DNA of 31,092 nt, taken from the UHGV virus genome UHGV-0151410. The stretch is one strand, 5' to 3'. Below the pieces are notes generated by a model. That model saw only the letters and a list, made by a program, of their open reading frames with translations, had not been told where the DNA came from and did not search any database. A program made the translations under genes and the position numbers. Shown one piece after another: positions 1 to 29,664 of this stretch; position 1 is the first letter of the stretch; each line of letters opens with the position of its first letter. Origin of the DNA: a virus.

Positions 1-264
1 ATGGGGCGCTTTTTCTTTCACGTAATGGGGGCGCTGGCAGAAATGGAACGTGAGCTTATCGTTGAACGTACACGCGCTGGACTTGATGCAGCTCGCGCAG
101 AAGGTCGTATAGGTGGGCGTCGGCCTAAATACCAAGAAGAAACATGGCAGCAAATGCGGCGATTGCTGGAGAAGGGCATCCCCCGTAAGCAGGTTGCAAT
201 CATCTATGATGTGGCTGTTTCCACGCTTTATAAGAAGTTTCCGGCGTCATCATTTCAATCCTAA
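1..264 (+). CDS. Serine DNA invertase (Gin/Cin/Hin/Pin family), C-terminal fragment; 5' end is outside the window
   Basis: Translation GRFFFHVMGALAEMERELIVERTRAGLDAARAEGRIGGRRPKYQ...IPRKQVAIIYDVAVSTLYKKFP is the conserved C-terminal catalytic-domain end plus HTH DNA-binding domain of Gin-family invertases. ORF runs to the window edge. Confidence 0.9.
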   Translation: MGRFFFHVMGALAEMERELIVERTRAGLDAARAEGRIGGRRPKYQEETWQQMRRLLEKGIPRKQVAIIYDVAVSTLYKKFPASSFQS

Positions 265-281
265 ACCTTGGTTTAAGAGAA
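256..281. other. Left crossover site (hix/gix/cix-like, 12+2+12 bp)
   Basis: CAATCCTAAACC-TT-GGTTTAAGAGAA; half-sites resemble hix half-sites (TTATCAAAAACC / TTCTTGAAAACC) around a 2-bp core. Invertase stop codon (262..264) lies in the outer half-site. Confidence 0.7.
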
Positions 282-409
282 CTCGGTACCAGCGGTGAAA
301 AGATCCCCCTGTTGAGTACGGCTAACACATGGAGTGCACGCCAGACTTTCAACGGCGGGATCACCGGGGCACTGACAGGGAACGCCGACACCGCGACGAA
401 ATTGAAAAC
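265..409. repeat. Left arm of the ~145-bp inverted repeat bounding the invertible segment
   Basis: Reverse complement matches 7075..7219 with only a few mismatches; encodes the same peptide (LGLRELGTSGEKIPLLSTANTWSARQTFNGGITG...) as the expressed fibre gene. Confidence 0.9.
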
Positions 410-3038
410 TGCACGCACGATTGGCGGTGTGGCATTTGATGGCTCGGCCAATATCAATCTTCCAGGTGTAAATACAACAGGCAACCAGAACACCACCGGG
501 AATGCTGCTACCGCGACAAAACTTGCGACGGCAAGAAACATCAACGGTGTTAAATTTGATGGTTCAGGGGACGTTAATATCAATACGTTGGTATCACGCG
601 GGCGCGTAACGGCGTTAAGTGGCTCTACTCAGGGTACTGCTGGCATTCAAATGTACGAGGCGTACAACAATAGCTACCCGACCACGTATGGCAACGTATT
701 GCACATGAAAGGTGCGAGTGCTGCTGGTGAGGGCGAGTTGCTTATTGGCTGGAGTGGTACGAGCGGTGCACATGCGCCGGTTTTCATTCGCTCCCGAAGA
801 GATAACACTGATGCGGCATGGTCAGCGTGGGCGCAGGTATATACATCAAGGGACTCCATTCCTGGTGTGAATGCCACTGGCAATCAGAATACAACTGGCA
901 ATGCAGCAACCGCTACAAAACTACAGACGGCAAGAACTATCGGCGGAGTTAGCTTTGATGGTACTGCGAATATTAATTTACCTGGTGTTAACGTTGCGGG
1001 TAATCAGAATACATCCGGTAACGCGGCTACAGCGACCAAGTTACAAACCGCTAGAACTATAAATGGGGTGTCGTTTGACGGTTCTAAAAACATTGAGCTA
1101 ACTCCAAGGTCTATAGGCTCGATCAACTCAGCAACAATGTCTTTTAGTGGTGGTGCCGGATGGTTCAAGCTGGCAACTGTAACCATGCCACAGGCCAGTT
1201 CCGTGGTTTACATAAGCCTGATTGGTGGTGCAGGGTATAACGTTGGCTCCCCGCAGCAAGCTGGCATATCTGAGCTGGTTCTGCGTGCAGGAAATGGGAA
1301 TCCAAAAGGTATTACTGGTGCATTATGGCGACGGACCTCGGTTGGATTTACTAATTTTGCATGGGTGAATACATCCGGTGATACCTATGACATTTATGTA
1401 GAAATAGGTAATTACGCCACAGGTGTTAATATCCAGTGGGATTATACAAAGGATGCAACTGTACAAATTCATACATCACCAACTTATACAGCGAATAAAC
1501 CAACTGGTCTTACTGATGGAACGGTATATGTCATTTACAGTTCGCACATTAAACCGACCGCCACGGATGTCGGCGCATTACCAATAACCGGAGGAAATCT
1601 CAACGGCGGTTTAACGGCTACTGGTGAGATCATTTCAAAATCGGCGAATGGTCTGCGCATTGCCTACGGAAACTACGGATTCTTTATCCGAAACGATGGT
1701 TCAAGCACATACTTCATGTTGACCGATTCGGGTAACAGCCTGGGAACCTATAATAGGTTAAGGCCGCTTATCATTAACAATGCCAATGGTGCTGTTACGA
1801 TCGGTAATGGACTCAATGTTACTGGCGGCATCAATGGTAGTTTGAACGGTAATGCTGCAACTGCAACAAAACTGCAAACAGCACGCACAATAGGCGGCGT
1901 GTCATTCGATGGCTCCGCCAATATCAACCTGCCGGGTGTAAACATTGCTGGTAACCAGAACACAACCGGTAATGCAGCGACAGCGACCAAGTTGCAAACT
2001 GCTAGAACTATAAATGGGGTGTCGTTTGATGGTTCTAAAAATATTGAGCTAACGGCGGAAGATTTAAATCTTGAGCAAACTGTAGAATTAGCCGCAGGAG
2101 CATTGCAGAAAAACCAGAACGGCGCAGATATACCGGGAAAAGATACCTTCACAAAAAATATTGGTGCATGTCGCGCTTTTCACAGTGCTATTAGTACAGG
2201 GGCAGGGAACTGGACAACGGCACAATTGATTGAATGGCTGGATTCTCAAGGGGCATTCAATCACCCATACTGGATGTGCAAATGTTCATGGTCATACGGC
2301 AATAATAAAATTATTACCGATACTGGCTGTGGAACTATTCATCTTGCAGGTTGCGTTATTGAGGTTATGGGTAATAAAGGTGCCATGACCATCCGTGTAA
2401 CCACCCCGAGCACTTCCAGCGGTGGCGGAACTACTAATGCACAATTCACTTATATTAATCATGGTGATGCTTATGCTCCTGGCTGGCGACGAGACTACAA
2501 CACGAAAAACCAGCAGCCTGCATTTGCTTTAGGGAAAACAGGAAGCACTGTCGGAAATGATAAAGCTGTTGGCTGGAACTGGAATAGCGGGGTCTATCAA
2601 GCAAATATTGGTGGCGCATCGACATTAATCCTCCATTTCAATATGAGCGAGGGGAGTTGCCCTGCCGTACAGTTCCGTGTGAATTATAAGAACGGCGGTA
2701 TTTATTATCGTTCAGCGCGTGATGGTTATGGATTTGAGGCTGACTGGTCAGAGTTTTACACCACAACCCGCAAACCCTCTGCGGGGGATGTTGGTGCATA
2801 TACCAAAGCGGAAGCGGACTCCCGTTATGTACGTGATATCCGACTTGGTGGCGCATCATCATACAAACCAGCAAATAACGGTACAACATGGACGCATCAG
2901 GCTCCATCTGGTTGCGCATATACCGGGATTATCGTTCAGGATACAGGCTCAAACTCTGCCGATAATATTGGTGGTGTTTATTACAGACCAATTCAAAAAA
3001 ATATTAATGGCACATGGTATAACGTATCGAGTATTTGA
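270..3038 (+). CDS. Silent alternative tail-fibre C-terminal segment (Sv'-like); no start of its own, would be fused to the constant N-terminal part after inversion
   Basis: Frame is open from the crossover core (GLRELGTSGEKIPLLSTANTW...) to the stop at 3038. Contains three copies of the ~55-aa fibre repeat (GNQNTTGNAATATKLQTARTI(N/G)GV(S/K)FDGS). The track ORF 312..3038 starts at an internal Met. Confidence 0.85.
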   Translation, partial: GLRELGTSGEKIPLLSTANTWSARQTFNGGITGALTGNADTATKLKTARTIGGVAFDGSANINLPGVNTTGNQNTTGNAATATKLATARNINGVKFDGSGDVNINTLVSRGRVTALSGSTQGTAGIQMYEAYNNSYPTTYGNVLHMKGASAAGEGELLIGWSGTSGAHAPVFIRSRRDNTDAAWSAWAQVYTSRDSIPGVNATGNQNTTGNAATATKLQTARTIGGVSFDGTANINLPGVNVAGNQNTSGNAATATKLQTARTINGVSFDGSKNIELTPRSIGSINSATMSFSGGAGWFKLATVTMPQASSVVYISLIGGAGYNVGSPQQAGISELVLRAGNGNPKGITGALWRRTSVGFTNFAWVNTSGDTYDIYVEIGNYATGVNIQWDYTKDATVQIHTSPTYTANKPTGLTDGTVYVIYSSHIKPTATDVGALPITGGNLNGGLTATGEIISKSANGLRIAYGNYGFFIRNDGSSTYFMLTDSGNSLGTYNRLRPLIINNANGAVTIGNGLNVTGGINGSLNGNAATATKLQTARTIGGVSFDGSANINLPGVNIAGNQNTTGNAATATKLQTARTINGVSFDGSKNIELTAEDLNLEQTVELAAGALQKNQNGADIPGKDTFTKNIGACRAFHSAISTGAGNWTTAQLIEWLDSQGAFNHPYWMCKCSWSYGNNKIITDTGCGTIHLAGCVIEVMGNKGAMTIRVTTPSTSSGGGTTNAQFTYINHGDAYAPGWRRDYNTKNQQPAFALGKTGSTVGNDKAVGWNWNSGVYQANIGGASTLILHFNMSEGSCPAVQFRVNYKNGGIYYRSARDGYGFEADWSEFYTTTRKPSAGDVGAYTKAEADSRYVRDIRLGGASSYKPANNGTTWTHQAPSGCAYTGIIVQDTGSNSADNIGGVYYRPIQKNINGTWYNVSSI
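1642..2071. repeat. Internal inverted repeat, copy A (perfect 1677..2071)
   Basis: Reverse complement is identical to 5002..5396, then continues to ~5431 with a few synonymous mismatches. Both copies encode IISKSANGLRIAYGNYGFFIRNDG...FDGSKNIELTAEDLNL. Confidence 0.85.
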
Positions 3039-3574
3039 TTATGATGCATTTAAAAAACATAAAGCCAGGCAATCCAAAAACCGAAGAGCAATATCTTTTA
3101 ACTAAAAACTCAGGCGTCGTCTGGTTATGGACCGAAGATGGTAAGAACTGGTACGAGGAACAAAAGAACTTTCAGGACGACACCATAAAGATTGCATATG
3201 ATGAAAATAATGTTATATGCGACGTGCAAAAGGATGTGACTGCAATTTGCCCGGAGGGAAAAAGTGTCGTTGAGGTTCCTGATATTACAGCAAATCGCCG
3301 GGCTGATATTTCGGGTAAATGGATGTTCAAAGATGGCGTAGTGATAAAGCGAACTTATACCGAGGAAGAGCAGAGGCAACAAGCGGAAAATGAAAAGCAA
3401 AGCCTGCTACAGCTCGTCAGGGATAAAACACAGCTATGGGACTTACAGCTACGGCTGGGCATCATTTCCGACGAGAATAAACAAAAATTAACCGAGTGGA
3501 TGCTCTATGCGCAGAAAGTCGAATCTACAGACACCTCCAGCCTGCCAGTAACATTTCCCGAACAACCTGAATGA
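3035..3574 (+). CDS. Tail fibre assembly chaperone (U'-like), cognate of the silent fibre segment
   Basis: 179 aa; start overlaps the fibre-segment stop (ATGA). Paralogous to the minus-strand 3603..4133 product (shared HLKNIKxGNPKT...WLW.EDxKNWYEE...[23 protein letters not shown]). Confidence 0.85.
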   Translation: MIMMHLKNIKPGNPKTEEQYLLTKNSGVVWLWTEDGKNWYEEQKNFQDDTIKIAYDENNVICDVQKDVTAICPEGKSVVEVPDITANRRADISGKWMFKDGVVIKRTYTEEEQRQQAENEKQSLLQLVRDKTQLWDLQLRLGIISDENKQKLTEWMLYAQKVESTDTSSLPVTFPEQPE

Positions 3575-3577
3575 GAC

Positions 3578-3605
3578 AAGGCCCGATAGCGGGCCTTAAT
3601 TTTTA
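3578..3605. terminator. Bidirectional hairpin terminator between convergent chaperone genes
   Basis: AAGGCCCG-ATAG-CGGGCCTT stem-loop with T-run after it on the + strand and A-run before it (T-run on the other strand). Confidence 0.6.
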
Positions 3606-4133
3606 TTCAGGCTTTTGTGGCCATTCAGGATTTGCCGTATCCACACGGCTGACCAGAACACTGTAGCGTTCCCATGCTTCCAGTCGTGTGCGCTCCTCGT
3701 CTGTTGCCATATTCAGCCTGACAGCGCGTTCCAGCGGCTGGATGACTGATTCAGCTTCGGAAAGCAATGCGGCCTTTTGTGATTCGGCCTGTTGTTGCTG
3801 TTCGTCTGCCGTATAAATCCGTTTAACCACAGCTCCATCCTTAAACATCCACTTCCCGGAGTCATCAGCACGTCGGTTGGCTGTAATATCGGGAACCTCA
3901 ACGACGCTAAAACCTTCAGGGTTAAGCGTGGATGCATCTTTGGTGATGGCGACAATAATATTATTTTCATCGTAAACAATCTTTATTGTGTCTGGTTGAA
4001 AGTTTTTCACTTCCTCATACCAGTTTTTATCGTCTTCGGACCATAACCAGATAACATCAAAATTCTTTGTTAGCTGATATTGTTCTTTCGTTTTAGGATT
4101 TCCAGACTTAATATTTTTTAAATGCTGCATCAT
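3603..4133 (-). CDS. Tail fibre assembly chaperone (U-like), cognate of the currently expressed fibre C-terminus
   Basis: 176 aa, directly downstream of the expressed fibre gene on the minus strand; paralogue of 3035..3574. Confidence 0.85.
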
Positions 4134-7100
4134 TTACACCTGTGCGACGTTATACCATGTGCCATTGATGTATTTTTGTATTGGCCTGAAGATGGCTTCA
4201 TCATCGCCATCTACTTCACCAATGATTCTTAATCCGGTAATTGCGTGTCCGGCTTTTTCATAACGACCACCACGCGCCATCAATTGAACAACTCGCGTAC
4301 CCAGGCGAACATCTTTTACATAGCGTGAATCAAAATTCCCCCAGTTGTTGGGCTGTATCTGACCGTTAACAGAAAATATTACCGAGTTATCTGTATTTCG
4401 CTGGCTATAGAAATGCCATCCTGCCTCATCGCCTAACTCTGCAACTACTGGACGGGTTGAAGCACCCCATAAATTAAACGTTGCATTCTTTGTGGAGGTG
4501 TTGGAGCTGGATAGCGAGAACTTTTTACTATCACCAGCCTGAATGTTTTTAAAAGCAATAGCAACTCCATTCTGAAAGCGGAATACTCGCTGACTATTAG
4601 CGTAAACATCCAGAATACCATCACCATTCTGTTTGAATCCGGTGTCATTATCACCAAGAACAATAGAGCTACCACCTAACGCATTCGTCGTACCAACTCC
4701 AAGACTGCCATTAATGACGGCATTTACCAGAATATTTAGTGCATCCCATTTCAGCGTCATCAGGTCTTTTGTTGTGGTGCTCTGGCGGCTTCTCCATTTG
4801 AAATATTCATTGCCGTTGTCGCCTGTTTCAAACCACATGTATGAATCAGTGTCACCATCGGCATCATTTTTAAATCCAATCTTTGCCCAGTCAGTATTTC
4901 GAATCCAGGCAAGGATTGAGTCGTTTTCAAAAGTAAGTCCTCCGGACAAGATATCGCCTGAACGCTGAACGGCATTATTTGCTTTATTAATAAATTCCTG
5001 TAGATTTAAATCTTCCGCCGTTAGCTCAATATTTTTAGAACCATCAAACGACACCCCATTTATAGTTCTAGCAGTTTGCAACTTGGTCGCTGTCGCTGCA
5101 TTACCGGTTGTGTTCTGGTTACCAGCAATGTTTACACCCGGCAGGTTGATATTGGCGGAGCCATCGAATGACACGCCGCCTATTGTGCGTGCTGTTTGCA
5201 GTTTTGTTGCAGTTGCAGCATTACCGTTCAAACTACCATTGATGCCGCCAGTAACATTGAGTCCATTACCGATCGTAACAGCACCATTGGCATTGTTAAT
5301 GATAAGCGGCCTTAACCTATTATAGGTTCCCAGGCTGTTACCCGAATCGGTCAACATGAAGTATGTGCTTGAACCATCGTTTCGGATAAAGAATCCATAG
5401 TTGCCATAGGCAATGCGCAGACCATTCGCCGATTTGGAAATAATCTCGCCAGCGAATTTCGCATAGGAACCAGTCCTCAAGACTAACTCTTCCTGAGCGT
5501 CAGTTGTTCCTGTACATAAGCGATAAACATTATTCTCTATTGTTTCATGCCATATGCTTGCACCTGTGCTGGAGCGGAAACGTCGCAGATACATTTTTGC
5601 ATCGTCAACAACTGACGTGAGCATGTCATGTTTATACTCACTTTGCGGCACGCCATTGCTATTGATTCCTCCCCGAAGAACAGTGCCACCCGGCATGGTA
5701 AAAATGCCATCTTCACCGAATATCCAATCACCTGAATTAGTACCATTGCCGGTTTCTTTATTCGGCGCAGCACAATTTATCCGGATGCCTGGTCGTCTGT
5801 TAGGGTTATCGACACCATCTTTAAATATGTACCCATCAGTTAGTGTTGTGCCGTCATTTTTCGTATATGTAAAGCGGATATGACGGCTTGTATGGCTACT
5901 AAAAATAAGATCGCTTTTAGTGGTAAGTAATGGAGCTGTCAGACCTCCTAATAATGTGCCTCCGGATAGAGACAGCGCGCCAATGTTCTCTGGTGTCAAC
6001 GAAATATCAGTAGTGCCATCGAAGGTTACTCCGTTGATTGTTCTGGCGGTCTGTAATTTAGTTGCTGTTGCAGCATTACCATTGAGGTTTCCAGAGCTAT
6101 AGAAACCACGACCATTGCTAAAATCAATAATTATGTCGGCAGCTATACATTCAGCTTTAGGGTTGGTAGCCCCCCATTTGTATGTGGTTTGTCCAACAAT
6201 ATAATCCGTTGTAGGGACAACAACAGAAAGCCCCTCCTCCACAAGAACGCATACTGGAAATGCTCCGCCTTCAATATAAAAAACTGAGCTAACTTCATCG
6301 TCTTTATTGCTCATCGCAATAGAATGAATCGCCCGTTCTGCATCCTGATATTGCCAGAACATCCCGTATGCGTACCGCCCTCTGTCACTCCAACCAGCAG
6401 GCATCACAAAACCATTGAATTCGCAGTTGTTCATGCGATGTGCAGCTTGGCGCGGCGCAGTGGAAATAATAACCCGAGAAGCAAGTTCACCATTGCTCGT
6501 TGCAGATCTCTTGATGACTACAGGATAGAATTTACCCTCTTCAGCTCCCGAAGGAGCATTGACTCTGGTGAATTTCATCCCTTTTTTAAGGTCTACTTCG
6601 GCTTTGCTGTAAACATCAATATTTTTTCTTGTTAACGCTGCATCAGTTGGTTCTAATGCTCGGCATTTGCTATCTCCGGTAATCAGAAAGTTACCGTCAA
6701 TGTCTAATCCGGCATATTTATTGGTGTTGGTATCAGATTGTAGATGTAACGTCAGCCATGAGCGGTTGCCACTCCTTATCTCTGAATAAATTCTGAAACG
6801 ACTCCTCTGTACCCCAGCTGAATTATTCAGATAACCACTTACAATCCCTGACGCGGCTAAATCAGCGTCTGTTGAGTTAACAAGATTGATACCCTTAAAT
6901 TGGGGGACGTCCGCAACACCTAATCCAAGATTAGTACGCCCTCCAGAGACGCTGGATGCACCTAATCCCCCATGAGTAATTGGTAAAATACCTTTTATGC
7001 CCAGAAGAGCATTTGATGAACCATCAAAGTCGATGGCGTTATCACTTTGGAGGTCAACTTGAAGCGACCTTTTGGTTTTCAATTTCGTCGCGGTGTCGGC

Positions 7101-8435
7101 GTTCCCTGTCAGCTCCCCGGTGATCCCGCCGTTGAAAGTCTGGCGCGCACTCCATGTGTTAGCTGTGCTCAACAGGGGGATCTTTTCACCGCTGGTACCG
7201 AGTTCTCTTAAACCAAGGTATTGGATAACGGCCAGTGTGCTTGTTTTAGCCAGAATATCGCGACCGACTGACGTTAAATCAGTCTGCGCTACCGTATCCT
7301 TACCAGTGAAATAAGGCAGTTTGTTTGCACCAGTCGCAAGGGCAGCGAGCGCGGTTAAAGTTGCATCCAGAGGCTGTTTGCCTGCCAGCGCATTTGTCAT
7401 TGTTGTCGCAAAGTTCGGGTCATTGCCCAGTGCTGCTGCAAGCTCATTCAGGGTATCAAGAGCTTCAGGTGATGAGCCGACCAATGCAGAGATAGCAGCT
7501 CTTACATAAGCGGTCGTAGCAATCTGCGTGTTATTCGTACCCTGTGCAGCGGTAGGCGCAGTAGGTATTCCCGTTAATGCAGGACTTGCTAAAGGCGCTT
7601 TAAGGGCCAGAGCATTGTTGATAGTTGTGCTGAAATTCGGGTCGTTATTGATCGCAGCCGCTATTTCTTTCAGCGTATCCAATGTGCCAGGTGCACCGTT
7701 GATAAGTGCCGTTATAGCTGCCTTAACAAAGGCCGCATTTGCGATCTGTGTGTTGTTTGTACCGGGTTCAGGTGTCGGCGAAGTCGGCGTACCTGACAGA
7801 TGTGGACTATCGAGCGGAGCTTTTGTATCAACCAAATCATGGAGAGTTTTGACAGCCAGAGGTGTAGCCGCTTTTCTTTCTTCTGTACTGCTTATTTCAT
7901 TAGAGAATTCGACACCAACAGCACGGTTAACCCGGTATTTAAGCACAATCATTTCTTTAGTCACAGCCGTTGCGCCGTTAGGCACGATAACTCGACATAA
8001 TTCAATTTGATTCTGCCCAATAGTATTGTCCGTACGCGCGTAAATTCTTGCAGCACTGACAGAAGATGCGCTCTCTACCTGTGTCGTTTTTACACCATGT
8101 TCAAAATTGGCTTCCAGCACAATAATGTTGGTAGCCCCAGCCTTTACCGAGACAGTCACATCTTCTATTTGCTGAACGGATATCTGAACATTATTTACAT
8201 CTACTGAAGCAGCCCCTTTACCTTCTGAGTTTTCAGAAGTTATACGGACGCTCAACCCTGTGCCGGGAACTGGTTCAAATCCACAGTAAAAGCCCGGCAA
8301 AACAATATTTTTAAGTTTTCTGTTAAGAGCCGAACTACTATAGAGTTCGAAATATTGAACATCAGCAAGCAACGGCTGTGAGACACCAGAGGATAGTGTC
8401 ATTATGTTGTTCGTTTTATCAGCACCCATAATCAA
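4134..8435 (-). CDS. Tail fibre protein (P1 S / Mu S-like): constant N-terminal part (about 7216..8435) fused to a variable C-terminal part (4134..7215)
   Basis: 1433 aa; N-terminal tandem ~65-aa repeats (GTNNTQIA...LDTL.E.AAA..NDPNF), multiple fibre repeats (GNAATATKLQTARTI.GV.FDGS); crossover site lies in frame inside the gene. Likely true start is the ATG at 8427..8429 (the track start at 8435 is TTG). Confidence 0.9.
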   Translation of the reverse strand: MIMGADKTNNIMTLSSGVSQPLLADVQYFELYSSSALNRKLKNIVLPGFYCGFEPVPGTGLSVRITSENSEGKGAASVDVNNVQISVQQIEDVTVSVKAGATNIIVLEANFEHGVKTTQVESASSVSAARIYARTDNTIGQNQIELCRVIVPNGATAVTKEMIVLKYRVNRAVGVEFSNEISSTEERKAATPLAVKTLHDLVDTKAPLDSPHLSGTPTSPTPEPGTNNTQIANAAFVKAAITALINGAPGTLDTLKEIAAAINNDPNFSTTINNALALKAPLASPALTGIPTAPTAAQGTNNTQIATTAYVRAAISALVGSSPEALDTLNELAAALGNDPNFATTMTNALAGKQPLDATLTALAALATGANKLPYFTGKDTVAQTDLTSVGRDILAKTSTLAVIQYLGLRELGTSGEKIPLLSTANTWSARQTFNGGITGELTGNADTATKLKTKRSLQVDLQSDNAIDFDGSSNALLGIKGILPITHGGLGASSVSGGRTNLGLGVADVPQFKGINLVNSTDADLAASGIVSGYLNNSAGVQRSRFRIYSEIRSGNRSWLTLHLQSDTNTNKYAGLDIDGNFLITGDSKCRALEPTDAALTRKNIDVYSKAEVDLKKGMKFTRVNAPSGAEEGKFYPVVIKRSATSNGELASRVIISTAPRQAAHRMNNCEFNGFVMPAGWSDRGRYAYGMFWQYQDAERAIHSIAMSNKDDEVSSVFYIEGGAFPVCVLVEEGLSVVVPTTDYIVGQTTYKWGATNPKAECIAADIIIDFSNGRGFYSSGNLNGNAATATKLQTARTINGVTFDGTTDISLTPENIGALSLSGGTLLGGLTAPLLTTKSDLIFSSHTSRHIRFTYTKNDGTTLTDGYIFKDGVDNPNRRPGIRINCAAPNKETGNGTNSGDWIFGEDGIFTMPGGTVLRGGINSNGVPQSEYKHDMLTSVVDDAKMYLRRFRSSTGASIWHETIENNVYRLCTGTTDAQEELVLRTGSYAKFAGEIISKSANGLRIAYGNYGFFIRNDGSSTYFMLTDSGNSLGTYNRLRPLIINNANGAVTIGNGLNVTGGINGSLNGNAATATKLQTARTIGGVSFDGSANINLPGVNIAGNQNTTGNAATATKLQTARTINGVSFDGSKNIELTAEDLNLQEFINKANNAVQRSGDILSGGLTFENDSILAWIRNTDWAKIGFKNDADGDTDSYMWFETGDNGNEYFKWRSRQSTTTKDLMTLKWDALNILVNAVINGSLGVGTTNALGGSSIVLGDNDTGFKQNGDGILDVYANSQRVFRFQNGVAIAFKNIQAGDSKKFSLSSSNTSTKNATFNLWGASTRPVVAELGDEAGWHFYSQRNTDNSVIFSVNGQIQPNNWGNFDSRYVKDVRLGTRVVQLMARGGRYEKAGHAITGLRIIGEVDGDDEAIFRPIQKYINGTWYNVAQV
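5002..5431. repeat. Internal inverted repeat, copy B (perfect 5002..5396)
   Basis: Reverse complement of 1642..2071. Confidence 0.85.
7075..7219. repeat. Right arm of the ~145-bp inverted repeat
   Basis: Reverse complement of 265..409. Confidence 0.9.
7203..7228. other. Right crossover site (hix/gix/cix-like)
   Basis: TTCTCTTAAACC-AA-GGTATTGGATAA; inner half-site identical to the left site, outer half-site TTATCCAATACC is hix-like. Confidence 0.7.
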
Positions 8436-8878
8436 CCCTCAACTTGCTCGATTGTCATGAGAATACTGTAACGTTTACCTTTATAGAGGGTGTCTTGCTG
8501 GGTGCAAAGCACAGCAAAAGCCTGTTCCTCAGCATCAACAAGCACAAGCGTGTTAAAGTCGTAAGGCGTGTTATCCGGCATTCTTTCTTGAGGGAAGGCT
8601 GCATTGATAGTGATAATCCCATCCACACTGGACAATATCAGATCGGACACAGCAAACTGTTGAGCGTTTCTCAATTTAAAATCGAGTGGAATGTCCGCTA
8701 TATTCCAGCCTCCTGCACCATTAGCAGTTACCAGACTAGATTTGCACCAATACGCCTTAGAGATAACAAAACGCGCACCTTTGCCGATCGCCGACTCAGC
8801 GCGGCGTGAATAATAGTAGGAAAGCAATTGCGCCTTATACAGGCGGTTACCATCTCTTGCCTTTAAATTTTCAGCCAT
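8432..8878 (-). CDS. Small tail-fibre/baseplate-associated structural protein (position equivalent to P1 R); function inferred from context
   Basis: 148 aa ORF immediately upstream of and nearly abutting the fibre gene on the same strand. Confidence 0.55.
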   Translation of the reverse strand: MAENLKARDGNRLYKAQLLSYYYSRRAESAIGKGARFVISKAYWCKSSLVTANGAGGWNIADIPLDFKLRNAQQFAVSDLILSSVDGIITINAAFPQERMPDNTPYDFNTLVLVDAEEQAFAVLCTQQDTLYKGKRYSILMTIEQVEG

Positions 8879-8943
8879 ACGAACATAGCCCCTTCATAAG
8901 CAATGAACCAAAGGAGAGTATGCTCAGTTTGTGATTTCCGTTG

Positions 8944-8969
8944 TTCTTCCCCCGCATTTGGGGGAAGAA
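8944..8969. other. GC-rich intergenic stem-loop (10-bp stem TTCTTCCCCC/GGGGGAAGAA)
   Basis: Perfect hairpin between two minus-strand structural genes; possible attenuator or RNA stability element. Confidence 0.4.
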
Positions 8970-8972
8970 TTA

Positions 8973-9818
8973 TTAAACAGGTTGAAGGTGGTAATCCAAA
9001 GGCCACGCATCGAGTGGGGTTACATCAAGATGTAATTGCTTTTCTGCCGTTCTGTTCTGTATGGCGTTAAGAGAAATATTGTTTACCTGGCAGGAGGTAT
9101 CACTACGGGATAGCATATCAGCCATACTCTCAGTAACATAAACACCTTCAATTACCGAAACATCCGTAGACAAGCAATTTAGTATTTCTGCCACTTCAGG
9201 GAATACAGCACTAAGCCGAAACGAGACGCCATCAAAAACAATATGCAATGGCAACAAAGGGGCTATTACTGTTTCGAAGTCAGATAACAATTTCTGCACA
9301 GCGGCTTCTTTATCCTGCTCTCCATATGAGCGATATAGCTTGTTCTGATCAACAACGACCAGCCCCCTTGATGTCAGGAAGAACTCACCGAATTGAGCCT
9401 GTGCCGTAGGTATTTCTATTTCGGTCGCAAAATATGAACCATAGGGGTGTTTTTCTATATTTACAGGTGCATACAGCGGTTCCCAACTAACAGGAATACA
9501 ACCGAATTCACGCCAGAATGTCTGCTCAATAGGCAAGATAGTGCCTTTAAAGTGCACTTCATCTAAACGTTGCGCCAGCAGCATTGGCCTACGGTCCTTA
9601 TCTTTTTCAGTGATAACGAAAAAACGCCCGTATTCAGCAATGCGGGCATCCATATCCTCACTGTCCATAGTGAAGAAGGATTTTCTGTTACTTATTCTTG
9701 TTAATATTGGTTCTACTGCCTCATTCCAGACATCCTGTAAAGCGTCTATAAATGCACTCCAGAGATGTGAATCCTGTTTTACTTTAGTTAATCGTTCCTT
9801 AAGCCAATTATCTTTCAT
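8973..9818 (-). CDS. Putative baseplate protein
   Basis: 281 aa ORF in the baseplate block between the fibre genes and the J-like wedge protein; assignment by context only. Confidence 0.5.
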   Translation of the reverse strand: MKDNWLKERLTKVKQDSHLWSAFIDALQDVWNEAVEPILTRISNRKSFFTMDSEDMDARIAEYGRFFVITEKDKDRRPMLLAQRLDEVHFKGTILPIEQTFWREFGCIPVSWEPLYAPVNIEKHPYGSYFATEIEIPTAQAQFGEFFLTSRGLVVVDQNKLYRSYGEQDKEAAVQKLLSDFETVIAPLLPLHIVFDGVSFRLSAVFPEVAEILNCLSTDVSVIEGVYVTESMADMLSRSDTSCQVNNISLNAIQNRTAEKQLHLDVTPLDAWPLDYHLQPV

Positions 9819-16804: not shown

Positions 16805-17560
16805 ATGAACAGAGCGGAATTAACAGCAAAAGCCGTCAGCCTGATTGAGTCAGCGACACCTATTAGTCGTAGTTTGGCACAAGCCAATGAGATCACGGAG
16901 GCTGCTTATCACCTGACTCGCGACCAAAAGCGACTGTTGTTTATTGTGGTGGGAAGACTTCGCTATGCTTCTAAGGATGGCGTTCTTGGTTCAGGTGCCT
17001 GTGAGTTGACGGTCAACGAATATGCAGAGATGTATAATTTGCCCTCTGCTGAAGCCAGCAAGGATATTCGTAAGGCCATTTCAGGTCTTAGCGAGAAGAA
17101 AGTTACGATATATAACCCTGATGAATCGACCGAATCAGAAGACAGTTATGAGTCTTATCCCTGGATGATTAAGGATGCCTATTCACCACGTCGCGGGACT
17201 TACATTATTCATCTTAATCCATATCTCATGCCGTTTTTTACTCTGCTTGATAAGAGATTCACAAGGCTGAATTTTACCGAAGTATCTCGCCTTACAAATC
17301 CTTATTCTATGCGGCTTTATGAGTCCTTATGCCAGTACAGGAAGGATGATGGAAGCGGCTTTGCCATACTTGGCGTCGAATGGATGCGGGAGCGTTATGG
17401 GTTACCAAAAAGCTATCAGCGGTATGCCGAATTTAAGAGAAGTTTTTTAACGAAGGCTGTAGCAGAGATTGAAAAAAATACAAAAATGAAAATAGTCTTC
17501 TCAGAGGTGACGGAAGGCGGCAAAGTTACCAGGATAAAATTTACCTATCAGCAGTCTTAA
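16805..17560 (+). CDS. repA: Plasmid replication initiator, Rep_3 (RepA/RepE) family
   Basis: Motifs HLTRDQKRLLFIVV, NEYAEMYNL and NPYSMRLYESL parallel the conserved blocks of pSC101 RepA / F RepE-type initiators; flanked by iterons on both sides. ATG at 16805 preferred over the track's TTG at 16772. Confidence 0.8.
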   Translation: MNRAELTAKAVSLIESATPISRSLAQANEITEAAYHLTRDQKRLLFIVVGRLRYASKDGVLGSGACELTVNEYAEMYNLPSAEASKDIRKAISGLSEKKVTIYNPDESTESEDSYESYPWMIKDAYSPRRGTYIIHLNPYLMPFFTLLDKRFTRLNFTEVSRLTNPYSMRLYESLCQYRKDDGSGFAILGVEWMRERYGLPKSYQRYAEFKRSFLTKAVAEIEKNTKMKIVFSEVTEGGKVTRIKFTYQQS

Positions 17561-17850
17561 GGGCAATTTTTACACCCCTCTCAAGGTGTAGAATTTGCCC
17601 TTAACGATCGGCAATTGAGGGCAATTTTTACATCTTAATTGCATGTATCTTGTTATTAGCAAGTTGTGTTTTTATATAACGTATTGATATGTAAGGACTA
17701 TGTAAAAATCGCCCTCAACCAATATCGTGCGTATCGTGCATTCTTATTGCGCTTTTTTATTATCATTCACTGTGTTAACTGATTGATATTATTGAAATGT
17801 GTAAAGAATGCCTTCATTACAGATGAATTGATGATGTAAAAAATGCCCTC
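17559..17850. repeat. Downstream iteron cluster (incA-like copy-control array), both orientations
   Basis: Iteron-like 18-20-mers at 17559..17576 (inv), 17585..17603, 17616..17634 (inv), 17700..17717, 17832..17850 in an AT-rich region. Confidence 0.7.
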
Positions 17851-19270: not shown

Positions 19271-19762
19271 TTATTCCGCCCAGTTGTAAACAATGCGCAG
19301 GGAAGGTTTAACGACCGCCGTTACGTCTTCGGATGAGAAGTCCACGGCGTCGGAATACACTTTGCAATGAGAATATGTGCGGATCAGACCTTTATGGTTA
19401 CCGCTATTCGATTCAGCCGCCGCCTGTAAGGTAATTTCCAGATATTCTTTTCCGTATACCATCTGTTTTACAGCGGCGAGAACTGCGCCTTCGATAGTTT
19501 CCGCGCATGTGACCTGAAATTCACCAGAGTTGCGTAATGGTCCGTGCTGGTTGAATTTCATGCCACCAGGGGCGTAATCCTCCACATCTTCACGTGTCAT
19601 TTCTGGTAACTGAGCTGTACGAACTAGTACAGACAGATGTTCGTAACCCTTAATGGTCATCCAATATTCAGAACCAATAAGTTTTTCGCCTGCAGCCAGG
19701 TTTTTATTAAACCGGGATTTTAGAAAGGCCATATCGGCTTTTGTATTTGCAAAACCGGACAT
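19271..19762 (-). CDS. Putative contractile tail tube protein
   Basis: 163 aa (typical tube size), downstream of the sheath gene, followed by a hairpin; C-terminal ...YNWAE resembles the ...YWE end of gp19-type tube proteins. Weak, by-eye similarity. Confidence 0.5.
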   Translation of the reverse strand: MSGFANTKADMAFLKSRFNKNLAAGEKLIGSEYWMTIKGYEHLSVLVRTAQLPEMTREDVEDYAPGGMKFNQHGPLRNSGEFQVTCAETIEGAVLAAVKQMVYGKEYLEITLQAAAESNSGNHKGLIRTYSHCKVYSDAVDFSSEDVTAVVKPSLRIVYNWAE

Positions 19763-27549: not shown

Positions 27550-27833
27550 TATGCAACCTGAAAAATATCCTCGCCGTTGGCGATAACAGAACCACAAGAA
27601 AGCGGATCGCCCACACAGACAACTCCCTTTCCACCTATCGAAAACCATACTCGCGTCGATACAGCTGCCCCTGGATGTGCACTGTTACCGTCAGTGTGAC
27701 TGGGAAACATGGCACCATCTACAACAATTGGCTTACCGTTAACGGTGAACCAGGGAACAGTTTCAGCTACCAGTCGCGGCGGAAATCCTCCGTGACCAGA
27801 ACAAAGGGTGTCGCTGGTGGCTATTGCGCTCAT
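27549..27833 (-). CDS. PAAR-like repeat protein (baseplate central spike tip)
   Basis: 94 aa with PAAR-type pattern: CSGHGG..., ...NGKPIVVDGAMFPSH..., ...HPGAAVSTRVWF..., ...VGDPLSCGSVIANG.... Confidence 0.7.
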   Translation of the reverse strand: MSAIATSDTLCSGHGGFPPRLVAETVPWFTVNGKPIVVDGAMFPSHTDGNSAHPGAAVSTRVWFSIGGKGVVCVGDPLSCGSVIANGEDIFQVA

Positions 27834-27914
27834 TCTTCACCTCCTGGTTATCCTCCTATTGTCATCACTTTGTTATTTCGTCATTCAAACTGAGAGTTAA
27901 ATTTCGGAATATTT

Positions 27915-28080
27915 TTGTATTCTCAATTCATTCTCAAATAAATCTCACTGTCAGACCATCATTCATTGGGTGATTAAGATATTCTCAAAATGAACTCAAT
28001 AATCACTCTTTTTTTATCTCTTTTGGTGTGGATTTTTAGGTGCTTCTCTATTAAAATTGCATTTTGATTCTCAAATGTGT
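27915..28080. promoter_or_regulatory. parC-like centromere/promoter region with repeated (A/G)TTCTCAA motifs upstream of parM
   Basis: At least four ATTCTCAA copies (27919, 27930, 27981, 28067) plus related TCTCA motifs in an AT-rich region. Confidence 0.55.
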
Positions 28081-28100: not shown

Positions 28101-29057
28101 ATGCGCATTTTTATCGATGATGGTTCAACCAATATCAAAATGCTGTGGGAGCACGACGGGGAAACTCGCACTCACATCAGCCCTAACAGCTTTAAGCGCG
28201 GATGGTCAGCAACATTTGGTGCGGGCAAGCCGTTTAACTATGTCATTGACGACGAAAAGTATTCGTATGATTTGATCTCGCCAGATGTTCTGCCGACGAA
28301 TAACGTGGAATGGCAATACAGCCCGCTTAACGTCCTGGCTGTTCACCATGCCCTGCTGACAAGTGGCATTGAGCCGCAGGAAGTAGAAATTGTGGTCACG
28401 CTGCCTCTGGCGGAGTTTTACGACGACGACGCGCAATACAATCTCGATAACATCGAGCGCAAGAAAGCCAGCCTTATGCGCCCCGTCACGCTGAATAAAG
28501 GCAATGTGTTCACGATTAAGAAAGTTACGGTACGCCCGGAGTCTATTCCGGCAGGAATTGGCCTGTGCGACAATCTGAACCCTGCCCATTCTGTTCTTAT
28601 CGTCGATTTGGGTGGAACTACCCTTGATGTTTCAATGGTCGCCGGGCAAATGACGGCAGTTTCCCGTGTTTTTGGCGATTCGAATCTTGGCGTCTCTCTG
28701 GTTACCAGGGAAGTAAGGCAAGCACTTGCCAGAGCCAATACCGAAACGTCAAATTACAATGTCGATCAGCTCATTATTAACCGCCACGATGAAGATTATC
28801 TGAACGACAATATCAATGACCCATCAGCGATTGGTGATGTGAAAAAGGCCATTGCCGCAAGCATTGACCGTCTGCGTACCCGCGTTCTTGATGTGATTGG
28901 CGACTTTAAAGGATATACGCATGTCATGGTGATCGGTGGTGGCGCACCGCTGGTGGCAGATGCAATTCGCGAGCAAGTTAATATTCGTGATGACCGTTTC
29001 TTCGTGGCGGATGACCCGCAACTTGCTCTTGTTCATGGCCTGAAAGCAATCGGTTAA
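28101..29057 (+). CDS. parM: Actin-like plasmid segregation ATPase ParM (StbA)
   Basis: MRIFIDDGSTNIKMLW...ISPNSFKRGW...LAVHHALLTSG...IVDLGGTTLDVS...GYTHVMVIGGGA closely parallels plasmid R1 ParM (MLVFIDDGSTNIKLQW...). ATG at 28101 with SD. Confidence 0.9.
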   Translation: MRIFIDDGSTNIKMLWEHDGETRTHISPNSFKRGWSATFGAGKPFNYVIDDEKYSYDLISPDVLPTNNVEWQYSPLNVLAVHHALLTSGIEPQEVEIVVTLPLAEFYDDDAQYNLDNIERKKASLMRPVTLNKGNVFTIKKVTVRPESIPAGIGLCDNLNPAHSVLIVDLGGTTLDVSMVAGQMTAVSRVFGDSNLGVSLVTREVRQALARANTETSNYNVDQLIINRHDEDYLNDNINDPSAIGDVKKAIAASIDRLRTRVLDVIGDFKGYTHVMVIGGGAPLVADAIREQVNIRDDRFFVADDPQLALVHGLKAIG

Positions 29058-29064
29058 CGAGGTA

Positions 29065-29409
29065 ATGTCCATGTCTCAGGAACGTAAGAAAGTGATGATT
29101 TATCTTCGCCCAGAGGCTTATGCCAATGAAAAGGCGGCGAGCGAGAAGATAAAAAAACATAGCGATATGGCAAGAACCGCATTGTTGGCAGGGCTTGCGC
29201 TGGGAGAAGTCGATAGCAGGCTTCCAGGATTACTGGCTTCCCTGCTGACCGAAGACAATAACCCGGAGCTGATCCGAAAAATGCTGGCATCCTTCCTGGA
29301 ACTACCAGCTGCGGTTGAGGAGCGCCCTGCCTCCATTGAGCCAGTGAAGGAGCAAGTTGTTGCCAAAAGCGCGTCGGCGCGCAATCTGGCTGACTCTCTT
29401 CCTGATTGA
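29065..29409 (+). CDS. parR: ParR-like centromere-binding adaptor (RHH N-terminus)
   Basis: Directly downstream of parM; N-terminal KVMIYLRPEAY...ARTALLAGLALG resembles R1 ParR (…ALTAGLAL…). Start may be the ATG at 29071. Confidence 0.75.
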   Translation: MSMSQERKKVMIYLRPEAYANEKAASEKIKKHSDMARTALLAGLALGEVDSRLPGLLASLLTEDNNPELIRKMLASFLELPAAVEERPASIEPVKEQVVAKSASARNLADSLPD

Positions 29410-29427
29410 CAGAAGATGTGCTGGTTT

Positions 29428-29454
29428 AAGGCTGCAAATTGCAGCCTTTTTTAT
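29428..29454 (+). terminator. Rho-independent terminator after parR
   Basis: AAGGCTGC-AAATT-GCAGCCTT followed by TTTTTTAT. Confidence 0.7.
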
Positions 29455-29461
29455 GCATTAA

Positions 29462-29664
29462 TGGTGTCTAATTGGTGTTAATCTGGAACCAGTTAGGTGC
29501 TGTTATGGTGCAATTTTGTATCTGGTTCCAATTTGGGGCTGATTTCGTGTTAAATAGGATGCAATATAAGGTGTATTTGGTCTGATTGATGTTATACTTT
29601 GCCAAACATTCATGACTCCATTATAGAGCCTGTCCCGCATCAAAAAGGCTCTTATCTGGAACCG
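29462..29664. promoter_or_regulatory. Centromere/operator-like repeat region upstream of parA (TCTGG(A/T)(A/T)CC motifs)
   Basis: TCTGGAACC at 29482 and 29655, TCTGGTTCC at 29521, plus repeated GGTG...TCTGG units. Confidence 0.5.

Follow-up and report, generated by a model that had tools for sequence, protein, structure and literature searches.

The window, that is, the whole analysed stretch of 31,092 nucleotides of virus genome UHGV-0151410, begins inside the invertase gene cin, the catalytic N-terminus of which lies outside it, and continues into tail-fibre genes in the order cin / Sv' U' U Sv / Sc R, in agreement with the annotation of P1 and D6 (Table 1). Between two inverted 26-bp crossover sites lies an invertible segment of 6,947 bp (269-7215), which confirms the length of about 6.95 kb given in the initial annotation. 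Its description there as an invertible tail-fibre segment next to an invertase also stands: the segment is of the Gin family, and the 3' end of cin abuts the left site.

Table 1. Features of the invertible segment and its surroundings (window coordinates).
Feature	Position	Strand	Evidence or remark
cin 3' end, last 87 codons of a serine DNA invertase	1-264	+	Pfam Resolvase (C-terminal part) and HTH_7
cixL, left 26-bp crossover site	256-281	+	26/26 identical to annotated cixL of P1 (NC_005856)
Outer inverted repeat, left arm	258-409		152 nt, 95% complementary to 7075-7226
Sv', silent alternative fibre C-terminus, 922 aa	270-3038	+	ORF, frame; Pfam Gp34_trimer, gp37_C
Left-arm insert, fibre shaft modules (1.2 kb)	410-1620	+	Only partly present in P1
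Inner inverted repeat, left copy	1621-2071		451 nt, 98.7% to 5002-5452
U', tail-fibre assembly chaperone for Sv'	3035-3574	+	Pfam Caudo_TAP, E 1e-35
GC-rich hairpin with flanking T/A runs	3578-3597		Between convergent chaperone genes; pattern scan
U, tail-fibre assembly chaperone for S (fibre expressed in this orientation)	3603-4133	-	Pfam Caudo_TAP, E 1e-37
S, expressed tail fibre, 1431-1433 aa	4134-8435	-	Sc 7216-8435; Sv 4134-7215
Inner inverted repeat, right copy	5002-5452		Counterpart of 1621-2071
Right-arm insert, 540-aa fibre shaft module	5453-7074	-	No P1 match
Outer inverted repeat, right arm	7075-7226		Complementary to 258-409
cixR, right 26-bp crossover site	7203-7228	-	26/26 identical to annotated cixR of P1
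R, tail-fibre gene upstream of S, same operon, outside the invertible segment	8432-8878	-	

In each crossover site, a 2-bp core is framed by 12-bp half-sites, and the TT/AA core matches in both. The letters of cixL are CAATCCTAAACC TT GGTTTAAGAGAA, and those of cixR, read as the reverse complement, are TTATCCAATACC TT GGTTTAAGAGAA. The 17-mer common to both, ACCTTGGTTTAAGAGAA, has exactly two copies in the 31 kb, in inverted orientation, with none expected (100 shuffles). When the annotated crossover points of P1 are applied, exchange falls at 268/269 in cixL and at 7215/7216 in cixR. Alignment with a Gin-family recombination site, proposed in the initial annotation as a check, is thus perfect (26/26) for P1 cixL and cixR. 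The accompanying claim that the sites are closer to hix than to gix or cix does not hold: in addition to the complete match with cix, Mu gix differs at 5 of the 26 positions (hand count) and hixL at about 5 of 26, and because this last distance is about that of gix, the sites show no particular closeness to hix.

The 87 Cin residues encoded in the window match the C-terminal residues of P1 Cin without a difference (100%). In plasmid NZ_CP047013.1, which is 99.9% identical to the window, the full-length Cin of 186 amino acids is 99% (184/186) identical to that of P1. The TAA stop codon of cin, at 262-264, lies within the outer half-site of cixL, as the initial annotation had observed. The region homologous to the annotated enhancer of P1, which is located outside the window, is identical at 68 of 72 positions both in NZ_CP047013.1 and in contig JAZJGW010000019.1 (locus L014) of the independent Escherichia coli assembly GCA_036613755.1.

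The variable C-terminus of the expressed fibre, Sv, comprises 1026 amino acids (4134 to 7214/7215) and is fused in frame to the constant part, Sc, while Sv' would come into frame with Sc after inversion; both fibre frames stay open through the crossover. The figures of about 920 and about 1030 amino acids first estimated for the two C-termini agree with the measured 922 (Sv') and 1026 (Sv). Over the first ~470 amino acids Sc is ~63% identical to P1 S, and the last ~220, up to and across the crossover, are near-identical to it. The S tip matches the Mu S structure 5yvq (E 2e-97). The last ~370 amino acids of Sv' are 82% identical to P1 Sv', and Sv' matches PDB 8ju3, a Mu S/S' chimera (E 1e-155). 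In JAZJGW010000019.1, Sv' is called as part of a single 1327-aa fusion gene. The two chaperones of the initial annotation are indeed present as U' and U, both intact Caudo_TAP proteins, and in NZ_CP047013.1 the annotation of U' reads tail fiber assembly protein. The hairpin between them, with eight pairs of which six are GC, likely serves as a bidirectional terminator, judging from its sequence. The equivalent of R in JAZJGW010000019.1 matches Pfam Phage_P1_tail_fiber_R, and R of the window has the position of P1 R. The region upstream of R gave no useful alignment to the P1 late promoter LPs, and none was assigned there; over its full length, the window gave no match in scans for tRNA genes and against Rfam.

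In JAZJGW010000019.1, the same 6,947 bp are present with one mismatch and no gaps, inverted precisely between identical sites, while the flanks (cin and Sc) are unflipped and 100% identical to the window. With one mismatch in 6,947 bp, the inversion of the whole segment is very recent relative to sequence divergence. Polymorphisms of the repeat confine the exchange to 52 bp (window 265-316) that include the cix core; this interval fits site-specific exchange, and homologous recombination inside it is formally compatible too. Additionally, three protein records (P0007-P0009) contain the same Sv, 99.5-100% identical, as an ORF of promoterless size (1012 aa), and at the single locus fetched of the three, that of P0007 on JAZJGW010000019.1, this ORF is silent and lies beside cin. 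Other pairs of plasmids of the family with equal segment length also differ in orientation, and in one such pair the plasmids themselves have the same length (NZ_CP077480.1 and NZ_CP066033.1, both of 97,453 bp). The segment is therefore found in both orientations in nature, with breakpoints at the sites, in a comparison between isolates rather than between molecules in one culture. The initial annotation would have counted it as a refutation if only one orientation were ever found; the flipped segment in GCA_036613755.1 shows that this is not the case.

The cix sites are located at the outer ends of the 152-nt outer inverted repeat, which encodes a junction peptide, GLRELGTSGEKIPLLSTANTWSARQTFNGGITG, common to both fibre frames. 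The copies of the inner repeat, perfectly identical over 1677-2071, encode a Gp34_trimer-like domain with two collar repeats and flank a core resembling the Mu G segment. Between the two repeats of each arm lie the inserts, both of which match PHROG tail-fibre families. The left-arm insert has internal GNAATATKLQTAR...FDGS repeats and matches, by tblastn, the fibres of JL22, CMS-2020a, SSU5, Goslar and Mu-like Yersinia phages. The right-arm insert occurs at 99.4% protein identity in two other P1-like phage records (MH445380.1 and MH422554.1) and is 40-66% identical to the fibres of 9g/JenK1-like, P2-like and other coliphages. Searches of the 1.2-kb and 1.6-kb inserts against Pfam, PHROGs and PDB and by tblastn revealed no novel domains, only tail-fibre families and known coliphage fibres.

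In comparison with the P1 C-segment (NC_005856), the 26-bp sites are identical, Cin is 99-100% identical, the stop codon of cin likewise lies inside cixL, the gene order is the same, and the constant fibre part is outside a segment with a Mu G-like core and convergent chaperones. However, the P1 segment measures 4,256 bp, and its variable parts have about 518 and 534 amino acids. In P1, a single continuous 636-nt inverted repeat (98%) starts at cix, whereas the window has two repeats, an outer one of 152 nt and an inner one of 451 nt, split by the arm-specific inserts of 1.2 and 1.6 kb; this arrangement is a mild novelty. In its middle part, the S tip of the window is also more Mu-like than P1-like. 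The excess of 2.7 kb over P1 corresponds to the extra shaft modules of each arm (1.2 kb left, 1.6 kb right), which have the cix-proximal repeat on one side and the Mu G-like core on the other. The size excess consists of ordinary tail-fibre shaft modules in both arms, both known from other phages.

The backbone of the source plasmid is similar to that of D6 (MF356679) and the D6-like plasmid prophages (pYU39_89 family), with a RepB-type replicon, a parM-type partition system and glnS just beyond the end of the window (cf. PMC6799933). In D6, cixL and cixR are annotated by homology, but the segment is about 4.27 kb in length and only 52% of window 1-8500 aligns, at 91% identity. In D6-like prophages, the inversion region is already known in the literature as the most variable part. 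A literature search for prior descriptions of long or nested C-segments gave only general statements of a hypervariable cin-Sv'-U'-U-S region. The Mu G segment (Gin/gix) is 85-88% identical in DNA over window 2100-4960 (tips and chaperones) and has the same switch logic; unlike the segment in the window, it is about 3.06 kb in length, has short repeats without long arms and has its invertase on the other side, in addition to the five differences in gix. The Min system of p15B, a P1-related plasmid, has an invertase of the same family with 3' ends of fibre genes as cargo. Min is a multiple-inversion system in which several cassettes are shuffled among six crossover sites, whereas the window has two strong sites. 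A scan with a half-site consensus of 18 positions over the window and all fetched loci found no strong extra sites of the Min type, cixL and cixR alone scoring 16-17/18. With the next-best sites inside the segment, one inverted pair in the inner repeat, at the chance level of 14/18, multiple inversion of the Min/p15B type (shufflon-like) is rejected.

The initial annotation considered the segment unusually large, and larger than both Mu G and P1 C. The latter is correct (6,947 bp against ~3.06 kb and 4,256 bp), and the former stands against these classical segments but not within the P1/D6-like phage-plasmids. Among 71 sampled P1/D6-like records, the segments form a continuum of 3.4-7.9 kb with a median of 4.4 kb, nine reach at least 6 kb, and no uninterrupted segment exceeds that of the window. 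Fibres of 1,400-1,540 amino acids are also common among the S proteins of these phage-plasmids. The size of the segment is real, yet it is no outlier in kind.

With the observed identity of the sites and the invertase, the reading frames, the cargo and the occurrence of both orientations in nature, the best explanation of the locus, at a probability of roughly 90%, is a Cin/cix C-segment that switches the host range of an E. coli phage-plasmid of the D6/P1 type. As a member of the textbook P1 C-segment system it is large but ordinary, with unusually long tail-fibre cassettes. By analogy with the biochemistry of P1, Mu and Hin, Cin would pair cixL (256-281) with cixR (7203-7228), with the help of an enhancer that binds Fis and is located in the 5' portion of cin, just outside the contig, and strand exchange at the central TT/AA dinucleotide would flip the 6,947 bp between the sites. 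As the constant 5' part of S and the upstream R lie outside the segment, only the joined variable half would be translated, along with its own downstream chaperone. In the present orientation, the product would be a fibre of about 1431 amino acids (Sc, right arm, inner module and Mu S-like tip) together with U; after inversion, it would be a fibre of 1327 amino acids (Sc, left arm, inner module and P1/Mu S'-like tip) together with U'. On the same analogy, the two fibres would differ in receptor specificity.

A frozen relic would retain the anatomy of a switch without inversion, its size reflecting insertions accumulated in an inactive locus. Some P1-like elements do have a truncated cin or damaged C-segments (PMC6906374), and pDEC12A-1 is without the inner half of cixL. 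However, neither cix site is damaged, the two fibre frames and the two chaperone genes remain open, Cin shares 99% of its residues with P1 Cin, and the flipped copy exists with its single mismatch, all of which make a relic highly improbable. More remote still is an assembly artefact, in which repeated fibre modules would have been mis-joined in a metagenome or short-read contig to give the 6.95-kb length. Though the region is rich in internal repeats and the window is an ENA contig, three independent assemblies (the window contig, NZ_CP047013.1 and GCA_036613755.1) concur over the full length, and RefSeq NZ_CP047013.1 carries the region in one piece, at 99.9% over 8.5 kb.

A less distant alternative, though still an unlikely one, adds a second tier to the Cin/cix switch. 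Here, the inner 2.9-kb core (2072-5001), with the S' tip, U', U and the S tip, would also invert alone by way of the 451-bp inner repeat, driven either by RecA-type homologous recombination or by Cin, the latter at a cix-like site in the repeat (1684-1709 / 5364-5389), such that one prophage could show four fibres (two arms by two tips). In plasmid CP042632.1, modules 95-100% identical to those of the window have the same outer arrangement with the core inverted, and the junctions fall inside the inner repeat, with the crossover mapping to 1677-2071. In three further loci (L007, L008 and L012), these arms are connected at the inner module to tips of the other type, and one protein record (P0125) is a 1457-aa fusion of Sc, the right arm and an S'-type tip. 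The spacing of the inner arms (2,916 nt) is also near the 3,006 nt of P1. However, CP042632.1 is the single near-identical isomer found; because its annotation is sparse (57 features over 94.7 kb) and it contains single-base indels and a ~944-bp duplication, it may be a chimeric assembly of mixed isomers. Junction-specific searches of PLSDB found the right arm, inner repeat and S' tip joined only in CP042632.1, and the right arm, inner repeat and S tip joined only in the source plasmid, which adds nothing in favour of the inner inversion. The cix-like site matches cixR at 17 of 24 half-site positions (hand count) and scores 14/18 on the consensus, but this score is near chance, given an unrelated 15/18 match at 19702, and its core dinucleotide is AT, not TT. 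Since the six polymorphisms that distinguish the copies of the inner repeat are all confined to 1625-1676, the crossover interval retains this site and fits homologous and site-specific exchange alike, and shuffling over evolutionary time would account for the other plasmids without a programmed switch. A second tier of switching in this segment is thus possible but unproven. The broader proposition, that long C-segments of D6/P1-like phage-plasmids are two-tier combinatorial switches, in which the core flips independently of the Cin/cix flip of the whole unit, is somewhat less probable again; homologous recombination of the host or of the phage may drive the core, or else Cin through a secondary site.

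As a textbook Cin/cix switch, the locus carries little mechanistic weight. It does indicate that in a Gin-family invertase system a distance of at least 6.9 kb is tolerated with the sites themselves unchanged, and that insertion of shaft modules enlarges the host-range cassettes of P1/D6-like phage-plasmids, which are frequent carriers of resistance genes. The conserved Gp34_trimer-like module serves as the joint for the re-assortment of arms and tips. If the inner inversion were frequent, the fibre repertoire of one prophage would be doubled, from two to four, and this would be of relevance for engineering P1-based delivery vectors.

The locus is a P1-type Cin/cix C-segment of a D6-like phage-plasmid, enlarged by ordinary tail-fibre shaft modules. 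Over 8.5 kb, the window shares 99.9% identity with the 93.4-kb Escherichia coli plasmid ptetA from swine (NZ_CP047013.1), and it shows partial similarity to phages D6, P1 and P7 as well as hundreds of plasmids of the P1-like type. Its backbone resembles that of D6 in the RepB-type initiator, the parM-type partition and the position of glnS directly past the window end (PMC6799933), the last being seen in NZ_CP047013.1. The annotation of this plasmid (L009) was used for 8500-31092, where the window coordinate equals L009 + 8430. Across the window, no tRNA genes or Rfam matches were found.

Both 26-bp crossover sites are identical to the annotated cixL and cixR of P1 (26 of 26 bases each), correcting the initial annotation, in which they were considered closer to hix than to cix; by hand count, they differ from Mu gix at 5 of 26 positions. 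A 17-mer common to the two sites has two exact copies in the 31 kb, inverted relative to each other, and none in 100 shuffles. A 152-nt inverted repeat (95% identity) has the sites at its outer ends, and the TAA stop codon of the invertase gene cin (262-264) falls within cixL. The 87 invertase residues in the window are identical to P1 Cin, while the full cin of NZ_CP047013.1 is 99% identical to P1 Cin and its enhancer region matches that of P1 at 68 of 72 positions. With limits set by P1's annotated crossover points (269-7215), the segment is 6,947 bp long, compared to 4,256 bp in P1.

Features of the window
Feature	Position	Strand	Details
cin 3' end	1-264		Pfam Resolvase end and HTH_7; serine invertase
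cixL	256-281		CAATCCTAAACC-TT-GGTTTAAGAGAA
Promoterless fibre C-terminus	270-3038	+	922 aa
Left-arm insert	410-1620		GNAATATKLQTAR...FDGS collar motif repeats and ~200-aa module
Inner repeat, 451 nt	1621-2071 / 5002-5452		98.7% identity; perfect over 1677-2071
Weak cix-like 26-mer	1684-1709 and 5364-5389		In inner repeat; TTATCCGAAACG-AT-GGTTCAAGCACA; core AT
Chaperone	3035-3574	+	Caudo_TAP
GC-rich hairpin	3578-3597		
Second chaperone	3603-4133	-	
Variable fibre C-terminus	4134-7214	-	1026 aa; in frame with constant part up to 8435
Right-arm insert	5453-7074		540-aa module; not in P1
cixR, inverted	7203-7228	-	TTATCCAATACC-TT-GGTTTAAGAGAA
D6-like tail and baseplate genes	within 8500-31092		NZ_CP047013.1 annotation
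RepB-family initiator	about 17030-17785		NZ_CP047013.1 annotation
PAAR-domain protein	about 27777-28061		NZ_CP047013.1 annotation
ParM-like partition pair	about 28328-29636		NZ_CP047013.1 annotation

The expressed fibre (S), comprising a variable and a constant part, is 1431-1433 aa in length. Both variable parts open with the peptide GLRELGTSGEKIPLLSTANTWSARQTFNGGITG, and therefore either one is in frame with the constant part following inversion. Mapping of the ORFs and sites bore out the initial description of the segment, fibres, chaperones and stop codon within the site, including its numbers. Sigma-70-like promoter matches in 1-9100 are fewer than in shuffled sequence (7 versus 17.1 +/- 4.3), and the P1 late promoter LPs has no alignable counterpart upstream of R, the gene preceding S.

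In P1, one unbroken 636-nt repeat starts at cix and its arms are 3,006 nt apart, whereas in the window only the first 152 nt of this repeat are left as the outer repeat. The inner repeats, which code for a Gp34_trimer-like domain, enclose a 2.9-kb stretch with 85-88% identity to the Mu G segment. The left and right inserts match tail-fibre families only. Two other P1-like phage records contain the right insert at 99.4% identity, and parts of the left insert are 73-94% identical to fibres of JL22, CMS-2020a and Mu-like Yersinia phages. The cargo has no component of unknown kind.

As initially proposed, the segment is invertible, and the comparison between isolates, rather than inside one culture, places it in both orientations, the check by which the initial annotation proposed to judge the idea. 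In a protein search, the variable part of S turned up as a silent ORF of 1012 aa in another three E. coli records (99.5-100% identity), one of which, contig JAZJGW010000019.1 of GCA_036613755.1, was fetched. In this contig, cin and the constant part of S through R keep their relative positions and are 100% identical to the window, while the 6,947-bp segment, enclosed by identical cixL and cixR, is an exact inversion of the window's and aligns to it ungapped with a single mismatch. Between the two sequences, polymorphisms that tell the two copies of the outer repeat apart move with the segment and those of the outer half-sites remain with the flanks, and therefore the exchange is limited to 265-316, including the cix core. 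Inversion gains additional support from pY-Ec2, where the left 5.2 kb of the segment are found at 99.6% identity in the expressed orientation.

Module painting of related loci revealed that the combinations of arm (shaft DNA) and tip (Mu G-like distal end) vary between related plasmids, with the joint always in the inner repeat. The plainest example is CP042632.1 (L004 5776-9603), in which the modules are 95-100% identical and the outer orientation is that of the window, with the 2.9-kb core inverted, joining the R arm to the S' tip; the crossover maps to 1677-2071, an interval that includes the left copy of the weak cix-like 26-mer. In GCA_048638945.1, a protein record (P0125) independently joins the R arm to an S'-type tip in a fusion of 1457 aa. 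A chimeric assembly of mixed isomers may also account for the core inversion in CP042632.1. A programmed two-tier switch, in which an inner core inversion accompanies outer Cin/cix inversion, is possible, though unlikely. The cix-like 26-mer in the inner repeat matches 14 of 18 consensus positions and 17 of 24 half-site positions of cixR, and an unrelated 15 of 18 match at 19702-19727 puts the former score near chance. Given this chance match, as good or better, elsewhere in the window, homologous recombination over ~400 identical bases is the simpler explanation of the core inversion.

Other rearrangements are found among related plasmids. The silent fibre gene of NZ_MK410117.1 (L010 7877-8740) is a chimera joining one half of the S tip to one half of the S' tip, each 100% identical to window modules, which suggests that the two tips recombine too. 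In pDEC12A-1 (NZ_CP077480.1; L005 556-581), the outer half of cixL runs straight into inverted fibre DNA, with the join (CCTT/GATATCGCC) exactly at the crossover point, and the reciprocal junction, TTCTCTTAAACCAA/CATTAATAC, lies ~305 bp off at about 865-890. It looks as though a Cin-type inversion had used cixL together with a secondary site, poor but matching in its AA/TT core, and had destroyed the normal cixL. Plasmids of E. coli and E. fergusonii measuring about 110-127 kb also contain units of inner repeat plus tip (matches H173, H174 and H194-H200), one to a record and at 98-99.8% identity; these plasmids may represent another phage-plasmid family with the same receptor-binding tips.

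Segment sizes were taken from match spans in 71 P1/D6-like records, with an exact check against cix positions in nine loci. Among these records, which are the top of the similarity ranking and biased to the window's relatives, sizes range from 3,366 to 7,891 bp (median 4,361 bp), with at least 6 kb in nine, and the window segment is the third largest. One of the two longer segments contains an IS2 element, and the other, in a poorly annotated record, has a tandem duplication of ~944 bp. This duplication, of the left-arm repeat region in CP042632.1 (L004 9604-11762), yields the 7,891-bp segment; the quality of this sequence is doubtful because it has only 57 annotated features and contains single-base indels. 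S proteins of 1,400-1,540 aa are common in the P1/D6-like phage-plasmid family and, together with the size continuum, place the window segment at the upper end of the range rather than in a separate class. The locus is a large addition to the already known P1-type C-segments, and frequent inner inversion, if true, would add modestly to its significance.
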